DNA of 64,000 nt, taken from assembly GCA_041687825.1 (NCBI GenBank), contig JBDNJI010000028.1, forward strand, positions 8,707 through 72,706, written 5' to 3'. How positions within the stretch are numbered: the first letter of the stretch is position 1; each line of letters starts with the position of its first letter. A program made the position numbers and the translations under genes. Below are positions 27,938-29,692 of the stretch, one piece after another. The notes under the pieces were generated by a model. The model ran no database searches and was not told where the DNA came from. It saw only the letters and a list, made by a program, of their open reading frames with translations. Source of the stretch: Candidatus Planktophila sp. (lineage in GTDB: Bacteria; Actinomycetota; Actinomycetes; Nanopelagicales; Nanopelagicaceae).

Positions 27938-28540
27938 TCACACCCTCTTGAGCGCGGAATAAACGGTGAACATCCGCTGAAATACAGTGATGACTCCAAA
28001 AATTGAGAGTAATCCGAAGCCGACTATCAAAGCAAAATCGATACCAAGTCCATAGAGCCCGATTGCGGTGAGAGCGATCACAACACGCTCGGTTCGCTCT
28101 GCAATCCCCACGCTACATTCAATCGACAAGCTTTCAGCCTTTGCTCGGATGTAAGGAATTAAGGTTCCAGTGATTAAAGAGATGAGTATCAAGATCGCAG
28201 ATAGATCATCGATATCAACAATATAAATCAACACCCCAACCAAGATTGCCGCATCCGTCGCACGATCTATCGTCGAATCCAAAAAGCCACCCCAGGTGGT
28301 TCCGATCCCATTGCTTCTCCGAGCAATCGCGCCATCAAAGAGATCACTCAGTGCAAAAAATGAGACCACTAGAGTTCCAAGAAAAAGATCGCCTCGTGGA
28401 TAGAAAAAGAGCGCAGATGCGATAGTTCCAATTGCGCCAACAACGGTGACACCATTTGCGGTAATACCAAGTCGAATAGCGAGAGTGACCACCGGTGTAA
28501 TTAAACGGGTGACCTGAGGCTTTAAACGTGCGCTAATCAT
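27938..28540 (-). CDS. pgsA: Phosphatidylinositol-phosphate synthase (CDP-alcohol phosphatidyltransferase)
   Basis: DLFDGAIAR...GGFLDSTIDR signature, YIRAKAE, ERTER. Start set at ATG 28540 (leaderless -10). Confidence 0.93.
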   Translation of the reverse strand: MISARLKPQVTRLITPVVTLAIRLGITANGVTVVGAIGTIASALFFYPRGDLFLGTLVVSFFALSDLFDGAIARRSNGIGTTWGGFLDSTIDRATDAAILVGVLIYIVDIDDLSAILILISLITGTLIPYIRAKAESLSIECSVGIAERTERVVIALTAIGLYGLGIDFALIVGFGLLSIFGVITVFQRMFTVYSALKRV

Positions 28541-28564
28541 CGTGCACATCGTAGGCTTTAACCC
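28541..28564. promoter_or_regulatory. Bidirectional promoter with two overlapping TANNNT -10 boxes
   Basis: ATCGTAGGCT at 28548-28557 reads TACGAT on minus and TAGGCT on plus, each 7 nt before an ATG. Confidence 0.7.
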
Positions 28565-29167
28565 ATGACAATCTCCACATCTGAGCCTGTGAAAATTGCA
28601 CTATATGGGCATGTCAGCGCTACCCCCGTTTCGCTTGCGAAGGCGCTCGAATCTCGCGGTATCCACGTTGAAATAAATCCATCCGATCTCGCTCGGGTGG
28701 ATTGTGCCATTTTTGCAGTCAATCCAGCAGCGGGAATTGATCAAGAGACAATTGCGCATTGGGAAAGTTTCAATGATTTTTTGACCCCAAGAATTTTCGT
28801 TGCACTGGCTCTACCCGGGAGCGATCTAGATTTTGACGATGCAGTACTCCTCGCAAATCGAGTTCTTGATCAGTTGGTTACACCATTCCTGGTACTGCAC
28901 GGAGATGATGGTGCTCCGGTTGCTTTGATCAATCTCACTGATCTGACTGTGCGGAACTACCAAGGCGACGTAGTTGTGCTCAATGAAAGCGATCCGGAGC
29001 ATAAGGAGTTAGTCGCTGAGTTCCGGGCTGAATATCTGGAGGCAGTTGATGCAATCGGTGAAGGAGCATTTAGCGCAGGCCTGCTCTTTCCAGCGATACC
29101 TATTAATTTAGATCTTGGAATCGGTCTTGATATTGTTGATGAATATCTCTCACTTTTAAATAAGTAG
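28565..29167 (+). CDS. Truncated EF-G2-like G-domain protein with degenerate GTPase motifs
   Basis: Collinear resemblance to the actinobacterial EF-G2 G-domain (IALYGH, DCAIFAV-x4-GID, PRIFV, DFDD, LHGDDG, FPAIP...GIG). Occupies the EF-G2 slot between pgsA and HIT. Confidence 0.7.
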   Translation: MTISTSEPVKIALYGHVSATPVSLAKALESRGIHVEINPSDLARVDCAIFAVNPAAGIDQETIAHWESFNDFLTPRIFVALALPGSDLDFDDAVLLANRVLDQLVTPFLVLHGDDGAPVALINLTDLTVRNYQGDVVVLNESDPEHKELVAEFRAEYLEAVDAIGEGAFSAGLLFPAIPINLDLGIGLDIVDEYLSLLNK

Positions 29168-29692
29168 CTACCACGCCGTCGCTATCTCAAGCCGCGTCTG
29201 AGTAAGTAGTTGTGGCAACACCTTAGTCTTCCCAATGATCGGCATAAAGTTTGCATCTCCCGACCATCGCGGAACAATATGTTGATGAATATGTGCTGCA
29301 ACCCCAGCGCCAGAGATTGCACCTTGATTCATTCCAAGATTAAACCCTTCTGGATTTGAAACTTTTCTAATGGTACGCATTGCATGAGCAGTGAGTTCGA
29401 ATATCTCTACTCGCTCGTCATCTCTGAGATCAGTCAGATCTGCTACATGGCGATGCGCGCAAATAAGTAGGTGACCTGGATTGTAAGGATAAAGATTCAT
29501 CACGACATACGCGCTGACTCCACGGTGAACAATCAAGCCATCTTCATCGCTCATGGCGGGAATCTCGCAGAAAGGACATGTCGCATCGTTGCCGACCAGT
29601 GGCCGATTCTCACCACGTAAGTAATCTAAGCGATGCGGTGCCCACAACCGCGCCCACGCATCTGGCATTCCAGTGGAGTCGATATAACTCAT
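29168..29692 (-). CDS. HIT family Ap4A phosphorylase/hydrolase
   Basis: RLWAPHR, CPFC, NLYPYNPGH, HIHQHIVPRW; follows thrS. Confidence 0.93.
   Translation of the reverse strand: MSYIDSTGMPDAWARLWAPHRLDYLRGENRPLVGNDATCPFCEIPAMSDEDGLIVHRGVSAYVVMNLYPYNPGHLLICAHRHVADLTDLRDDERVEIFELTAHAMRTIRKVSNPEGFNLGMNQGAISGAGVAAHIHQHIVPRWSGDANFMPIIGKTKVLPQLLTQTRLEIATAW

Follow-up and report, generated by a model that had tools for sequence, protein, structure and literature searches.

A predicted EF-G2 derivative reduced to a switch-less domain I is retained throughout the Nanopelagicaceae

Within a 64,000-nucleotide stretch of Candidatus Planktophila sp. DNA (hereafter the window, meaning the whole of the DNA analysed), we studied a small gene that we read, with a probability of roughly 0.6, as the positional orthologue of actinobacterial EF-G2, reduced to a switch-less domain I and serving as a nucleotide-free module. 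Judged by sequence and position, its product, here called mini EF-G2, descends from EF-G2; in structure prediction it folds like EF-G domain I, with a Rossmann-like G core and a G' subdomain; and in alignments it is devoid of every canonical nucleotide-binding element as well as of domains II–V. The gene is kept intact under purifying selection throughout the Nanopelagicaceae.

The Nanopelagicaceae rank with the most abundant bacteria of fresh water and have pared-down genomes of about 1.2–1.5 Mb. Having dropped 70% of EF-G2, they keep the remaining 200 residues under constraint as tight as that on neighbouring housekeeping genes. To our knowledge, what the spare factor EF-G2 (EFG II) does has been unsettled since 2009–2011 or earlier.

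Results

The mini EF-G2 gene and its relatives

The gene is an uninterrupted frame running from ATG to TAG (Table 1), as the initial annotation of this DNA had described it, and encodes a protein of 21.5 kDa with a pI of 4.2 and a net charge of about −21. No overlapping open reading frame of at least 60 aa was found on the opposite strand across the gene, and the possibilities that it reflects an opposite-strand gene or an annotation artefact were rejected, given the lack of a competing frame and the strong selection described below.

A Pfam search with the mini EF-G2 frame returned no match even at E = 1, including to PF00009 (GTP_EFTU). The sole NCBIfam match was the EF-G2 model NF009377 (E 2.8e-11), with residues 44–161 aligned to profile positions 101–218 of 700, and its 42.6 bits fall short of the curated cut-off of 890 bits, which applies to the whole protein. 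A profile built from the orthologues found its best PDB sequence match in M. smegmatis EF-G2 (9k0z_7, E 7e-16) and its second-best in 1WDT. Searching a collection of 5.8 billion proteins, we obtained 964 clusters at E <= 1e-5, chiefly from freshwater metagenomes, whose source-given names were all 'hypothetical' or 'unannotated' and none of which carried a Pfam domain. The closest named relatives, 65–71% identical, come from metagenome-assembled genomes (MAGs) labelled Candidatus Planktophila sp. or Candidatus Nanopelagicaceae bacterium; the assembly containing the window measures 0.92 Mb and is 73.5% complete, and the genomes of its relatives span 1.0–2.2 Mb. A Planktophila-type mini gene with 65% identity also occurs on a 1.9-kb contig (CAIQHU010000029.1) of a MAG labelled 'uncultured beta proteobacterium', where it is probably a binning contaminant.

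Table 1. Coordinates in the window of the mini EF-G2 gene, its parts and its neighbours.
Feature	Position	Strand	Details
PIP synthase (phosphatidylinositol-phosphate synthase), divergent neighbour	27938..28540	-	NCBIfam NF045883, 199.6 bits
Spacer between divergent start codons	28541..28564	.	24 nt, PIP synthase start taken as the ATG ending at 28540
Mini EF-G2 gene	28565..29167	+	ATG to TAG, stop codon included; 200 aa
Beta1 and former P-loop	28595..28630	+	residues 11-22; alignment, conservation profile
Linker at switch deletion	28652..28702	+	residues 30-46; least conserved part, mean 0.29
ALAL in place of G4 motif TKLD/NKxD	28802..28813	+	residues 80-83; alignment
G' subdomain: four-stranded sheet and acidic helix A	28877..29056	+	residues 105-164; mean conservation 0.62-0.63
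Linker in place of lost G' helices B/C	29057..29089	+	residues 165-175; alignment
Beta6 and last helix of domain I	29090..29164	+	residues 176-200; alignment, model
HIT-family ATP adenylyltransferase, convergent neighbour	29168..29692	-	NF052622

Predicted fold and anatomy

AlphaFold2 prediction from a 29-sequence alignment yielded a model of mini EF-G2 with a pLDDT of 93.9 and a pTM of 0.90. When this model was compared with the PDB using Foldseek, the top ranks were all EF-G entries (E down to 7e-13, TM 0.77–0.81), among them T. thermophilus EF-G-2 (1wdt) and the 70S-bound EF-G2 of M. smegmatis (9k0z). VIA-align superposed model residues 4–200 on residues 5–283 of S. aureus EF-G with a Z of 21.7 and an rmsd of 2.4 Å over 195 residues, a span that on the predicted model corresponds exactly to domain I with G'. 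A G-domain fold is present by both measures (Foldseek E 7e-13 with TM 0.80; VIA-align Z 21.7), and strands 108–141 together with helix 144–164 superpose on the G' subdomain of EF-G. An EF-G or EF-G2 domain I had been anticipated as the top match, and profile search, Foldseek and VIA-align each returned one.

To read the motifs, we aligned mini EF-G2 with full-length EF-G2 from the same family, the Nanopelagicaceae. At its N-terminal end, G-H-V-S-A-T-P-V stands in place of the P-loop GxxGAGKT, with the Lys and Thr lost; this region is poorly conserved between genera, and G-H-x-S-A-x-P is fairly constant there within the genus. About 55–60 residues, comprising switch I, beta2, beta3, DxPG and switch II, have been deleted and replaced by a linker of about 15 residues, after which the beta4/helix/beta5 block is retained with Trp66 and Pro75-Arg76. 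Where mini EF-G2 has ALAL for the G4 motif, most orthologues have T-G-L-D/E or similar.

The following D-F-D-D segment, helix 4, the G' sheet (L-V-L-H-x-D-D-G-x-P-x-A-L-I-x-L) and the acidic helix A are all retained, and T106, P107, L109–H112, G116, I122, Y132, F153 and E156 are invariant in G'. About 24 residues of the G' helices, which full-length EF-G2 retains, are deleted. P-A-I-P replaces the SA motif of G5, and the chain ends at the boundary of domains I and II.

Taken motif by motif, none of the canonical G elements survives: G1 has lost its Lys and Thr, G2 and G3 fall within the deletion, and ALAL stands at G4 and P-A-I-P at G5. The five-domain architecture of EF-G2, about 700 aa long, is likewise absent, as the protein is 200 aa long and has no domains II–V. 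The initial annotation had proposed much of this anatomy, and the alignment agrees with it on each point: the replaced P-loop (GK lost), the deletion of switch I and DTPG, the retained W...PRIFV block, ALAL for G4, the retained G'-like segment, the missing domains II–V and the chain that stops after FPAIP...GIG, an end that the alignment places at the last helix of domain I. Its claim of collinearity with EF-G2 domain I also fits the NF009377 match.

A conserved genomic slot

The divergent PIP synthase gene (a CDP-alcohol phosphatidyltransferase) heads genes for a lipid-A-type acyltransferase and a PimA-like GT4 glycosyltransferase. Its frame contains two in-frame ATGs, M1 ending at 28549 and M4 ending at 28540. 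M4, which gives a 200-aa PIP synthase, is the better choice in view of the symmetric spacer and of the starts called on related contigs. On the other side, thrS lies beyond the HIT gene, both convergent with the mini EF-G2 gene. The stop codons abut, with the mini TAG at 29165–29167 and the HIT stop codon at 29168–29170 on the minus strand, leaving no spacer and no terminator-like site, and from this layout the mini and HIT transcripts would have to overlap at their 3' ends. At a related metagenomic locus (L106), the gene in the mini slot and the HIT gene overlap by 24 nt.

In all 60 loci examined, full-length EF-G2 loci included, the homologue has the PIP synthase-acyltransferase genes on one side and HIT-thrS on the other, both on the opposite strand. 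This one slot is occupied by three architectures, of 716–724 aa, about 325 aa (genus g23) and about 190–230 aa (the other genera sampled). The longest, full-length EF-G2, occurs in genus g31 of the Nanopelagicaceae (genomes of 1.8–2.1 Mb) and in one genome of another family; the full-length proteins of the slot score 1099 and 1167 bits on NF009377, against the cut-off of 890, and carry GxGKT, D-x-P-G-Y and TKxD, the Nanopelagicaceae protein reading D-A-P-G-Y at the catalytic-His position. Both the gene order (divergent pgsA, convergent HIT-thrS) and the location of EF-G2 in this slot, as put forward in the initial annotation, are thereby confirmed, and common descent of mini EF-G2 with EF-G2 is supported by the synteny in 60 loci together with the best family and PDB matches. 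Because full-length EF-G2 has the same synteny, the adjacency to phosphatidylinositol (PI)/PIM genes is inherited and carries no specific functional weight.

The spacer between the divergent start codons contains the 10-mer ATCGTAGGCT. On the plus strand, a −10 box, TAGGCT, is located at 28552–28557, 7 nt before the ATG, in keeping with the suggestion that the gene has a −10 box of its own, and on the minus strand a −10-like TACGAT at 28553–28548 overlaps it. ATCGTAGGCT is retained in 48 of 53 orthologous loci from many genera, and a TANNNT hexamer is found 6–8 nt before the start in 53 of 53, a count for which the choice of start partly used the motif. In genus g31, the full-length EF-G2 gene is preceded by a variant of the 10-mer, ATCGTATGCC. 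Simple scans of 28300–29400 for sigma-70 promoters and terminators found none, the sigma-70 scan being one that requires a −35 box; leaderless actinobacterial promoters often have no −35 box. The spacer looks like a minimal bidirectional leaderless promoter for the mini and PIP synthase genes, and the mini protein is probably made from a leaderless mRNA, with the 24-nt bidirectional promoter in common with PIP synthase.

Distribution and selection

Among 120 Nanopelagicaceae genomes, each at least 80% complete, a single-protein search gave a match in 119, covering all 17 genera, and nearly all matches were uninterrupted frames. With a profile, an order-level sample gave a match in 81 of 81 genomes, each of which also has a normal EF-G of about 701 aa. 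Four genomes without a match (G116, G019, G006 and G009) lack the adjacent HIT gene too, which points to an unassembled region and not to gene loss. The orthologues are of conserved length, about 190–230 aa, and show identities of 30–57%.

Compared with the nearest copy, a 91%-identical metagenomic one, the gene has a dN/dS of 0.11 (dS 0.44); four neighbouring genes give 0.04–0.09 in the same comparison, and other unsaturated pairs of the mini gene give 0.03–0.11, values that are limited to pairs with dS below 1.5, most pairs of species representatives being saturated at synonymous sites. The gene is thus retained under selection (dN/dS 0.03–0.11, 119 of 120 genomes), and a pseudogene reading was rejected in view of intact orthologues across the family and strong purifying selection. 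For a repurposed pseudo-GTPase, as opposed to a decaying pseudogene, the prediction had been syntenic orthologues that hold their length and show a dN/dS far below 1; such orthologues, the low dN/dS and the fold match support that proposal.

Conservation is unevenly spread along the protein. The lowest column scores (0.29–0.41) belong to the N-terminus, the one-time P-loop and the linker, and the highest (0.54–0.65; G' 0.59–0.65) to the stretch that starts with D-F-D-D, takes in G' and helix A and ends with the P-A-I-P strand, a distribution from which the old nucleotide pocket appears to be drifting and the G' half to be held. Helix A keeps its acidic residues E145, E152 and E156, the last of them invariant, and all 53 mini proteins compared are very acidic, with a median pI of 4.2 and a net charge of −21.

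Other reduced forms of EF-G2

Genus g23 of the Nanopelagicaceae (L052–L054) has an intermediate of about 325 aa that shows the same loss of P-loop and switches and keeps the full G' helices. Beyond the family, a form of about 336 aa without the P-loop is found in family f52 (L109, L110; genomes of 1.5–1.7 Mb, 48–49% GC), and forms of 302 aa and 339 aa, again with the P-loop lost, are found on metagenomic contigs (L106, L107). One genome of family f46 (L111) encodes a form of about 300 aa that keeps the P-loop, G-P-P-A-S-G-K-S, and T-K-L-D and has no switches. The f52, f46 and metagenomic forms all occupy the slot between PIP synthase and HIT, all are without annotation, and they differ in their motif losses, each having an extra C-terminal piece. 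The common element of all reduced forms is a switch-less G/G' core.

No Pfam match was found for the C-terminal tails of the g23, f52 and f46 forms. In BLAST comparisons with full-length EF-G2, the g23 tail of about 110 residues aligned to domain V with an E of 0.064, and the f52 and f46 tails gave E values of 2.8 and 1.2; a suggestion from these alignments is that the tails could be remnants of domains V/II. Prediction of the g23 protein (about 329 aa) from a 4-row alignment had a mean pLDDT of 48.6 and was unusable overall, with only residues ~260–329 reaching a pLDDT of about 70, as beta-alpha-beta-beta-alpha-beta.

In a class-level survey based on the mini profile, EF-G2 frames of at least 700 aa turned up in most actinobacterial families; the genomes in that group include G030, G208 and G214, which are flagged as unpublished and on which no claim is built. 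In a gene tree of domain I, all degenerate forms fall together on a long stem (SH-aLRT 99), a grouping likely caused by long-branch attraction, and a tree uniting the mini, intermediate and full-length forms of the family, as in vertical descent with separate reductions, was not rejected by an AU test (p 0.35). The trimming of EF-G2 was possibly serial and separate in several streamlined actinobacterial lineages. The ESM Atlas holds further clusters of short Actinomycetota proteins (about 250–320 aa) that carry only GTP_EFTU and are look-alikes at the level of features.

Discussion

A probable binding module with a conserved G' surface

Since the P-loop Lys and Thr, the switches and NKxD are absent and the pocket appears to be drifting, guanine-nucleotide binding by mini EF-G2 is very unlikely, and the protein probably serves as a binding module. 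Having no domains II–V, it can neither act as a tRNA mimic nor power translocation. The working surface would be the G' subdomain, the best-conserved part of the protein, with its acidic helix A.

In canonical EF-G, helix A of G' contacts the C-terminal domain of ribosomal protein bL12. By analogy, the ribosomal bL12 stalk or the GTPase-associated centre has about one chance in three of being the target, and the stalk ranks as the most likely one because G' is best conserved and carries the bL12-contacting helix A. At the stalk, mini EF-G2 might modulate factor recruitment in slow-growing oligotrophs, and it may carry forward the ribosome binding that is reported for EF-G2 of mycobacteria, which is linked to stress and independent of GTPase activity.

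The structural prerequisite for such binding, a G' sheet with an acidic helix A, is present, but several points count against the stalk. The missing domains III–V and the missing switch and SRL-contacting region make up most of the surface by which EF-G holds the ribosome; the lone contact between G' and bL12 is weak and transient in canonical EF-G; helix A has a packing role as well, and its conservation may be structural; and the mini forms are short of about 24 G'-helix residues. The net charge of −21 argues against rRNA binding. bL12 was not found in the genome of the window (73.5% complete), and a complete genome of the same genus supplied it for a complex prediction, in which the same-genus mini protein and the bL12 C-terminal domain (residues 56–126) scored 0.01, with the mark at 0.32, a result that carries no verdict.

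Alternative readings

A partner away from the ribosome is nearly as likely as the bL12 stalk target, and on the first alternative reading mini EF-G2 would be a nucleotide-free scaffold or regulator acting off the ribosome, for example on the PI/PIM lipid pathway encoded next door; the initial annotation had suggested both a stalk binder and a PI/PIM scaffold as candidate roles. The loss of every ribosome-anchoring domain, the strong acidity of the protein and the conserved divergent promoter common to the mini and PIP synthase genes all speak for this reading, and purifying selection with family-wide retention would fit any protein-level function. However, the synteny with PIP synthase is ancestral and the same for full-length EF-G2 of the ribosome type, and mycobacterial fusA2 lies elsewhere in the genome, away from the PIP synthase slot. 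Mini EF-G2 shows no membrane or lipid-binding feature, and its best-kept part is G', for which stalk contact is the only role we know of. We consider this reading somewhat unlikely.

Some pseudo-GTPases bind nucleotide without hydrolysing it, and mini EF-G2 could in the same way remain a switch that holds a nucleotide or another phosphate ligand in a non-canonical pocket. The near constancy of G-H-x-S-A-x-P within the genus would suit such a pocket, as would the reduced f46 form with its G-P-P-A-S-G-K-S and T-K-L-D; yet the P-loop Lys and Thr, switch I, DxxG, NKxD and SA are all missing, the old P-loop is not conserved between genera and Pfam GTP_EFTU gives no match, making this reading very unlikely. 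Least likely of all, with hardly any probability left to it, is a vestigial remnant devoid of protein function whose frame persists through constraint on neighbouring DNA (the PIP synthase promoter and the HIT 3' overlap): with start codons 24 nt apart and abutting convergent stops, regulatory sequence must fall within coding DNA, but dN/dS is low (0.04–0.11, at dS up to 1.5) over all 200 codons, frames are intact at 30–57% amino-acid identity in 17 genera, conservation peaks in mid-protein and not at the gene ends, and a co-varying alignment gives a confident fold prediction.

Implications

Returning to mini EF-G2 as a reduced, nucleotide-free EF-G2, the natural deletion series within one family, with lengths of about 720, about 325 and about 200 aa, together with the reduced forms found elsewhere, singles out the G/G' core as the selectable unit. 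A tentative and, in our estimate, unlikely extension is that the trimming of EF-G2 exposes its selected part, a switch-less G/G' core that works without GTP, tRNA mimicry or domain IV. If it is true that the bL12 stalk, or another hub, is capped or tuned by this core, the core would constitute a new class of minimal translation regulator in the freshwater bacteria of greatest abundance and would hint at what actinobacterial EF-G2 really does. As a small, soluble and easily expressed protein, mini EF-G2 lends itself to direct tests of the GTP-independent function of EF-G2.

Comparison with known systems

Nucleotide-free pseudo-GTPases, which use a GTPase fold without G motifs as a binding domain, are known mainly from eukaryotes, where they are Ras-like or septin-like domains, usually within larger proteins. 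Unlike these, mini EF-G2 stands alone, comes from bacteria and derives from a translational GTPase. In our literature search, no paper turned up on EF-G2 derivatives that are truncated or nucleotide-free, nor one combining 'pseudoGTPase', 'elongation factor G' and 'bacteria'.

The mycobacterial EF-G2 has been treated in a preprint that cites Baid & Sengupta 2025 (FEBS J). In M. smegmatis EF-G2 the catalytic His is replaced by Tyr, and the mycobacterial protein binds 70S and 50S without ribosome-dependent GTPase activity and has been assigned a stress-related regulatory role (bioRxiv 10.64898/2026.05.25.727771). Full-length EF-G2 in the slot has the same substitution, a Tyr after DxPG.

More widely, mini EF-G2 belongs with the EFG II subfamily (T. 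thermophilus EF-G-2, PDB 1WDT), from which it differs by its lost G motifs and its truncation. EFG II proteins are spare paralogues of EF-G that evolve fast, have relaxed G domains and bear many indels, some of them in G'; Margus, Remm & Tenson (2011) found G1, G3, G4 and G5 conserved across the subfamily and described no truncated members (PMC3150367). Against canonical EF-G domain I (S. aureus, PDB 2XEX/9GHC), the fold match runs end to end at 12–18% sequence identity, but mini EF-G2 is without the switches, the nucleotide site and domains II–V, and its G' is trimmed. The other reduced forms (g23, f52, f46 and metagenomic) resemble it in slot, in the deletion of switch I and G3 and in the G/G' core, whereas they keep extra C-terminal pieces, of weakly indicated origin, that mini EF-G2 does not have.

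The closest comparison is with actinobacterial EF-G2 itself (NF009377; M. smegmatis, PDB 9K0Z/9K10), by position and sequence the direct ancestor, whose Nanopelagicaceae full-length members have a G' sequence signature in common with mini EF-G2. That protein has about 700–720 aa in five domains, intact G1, G3, G4 and G5, binds guanine nucleotides and contacts the ribosome via domains I–V, whereas mini EF-G2 consists of domain I only, with two internal deletions, and evolves faster. Mini EF-G2 descends directly from the EF-G2 family and yet falls outside it in score, in architecture and in its G motifs.
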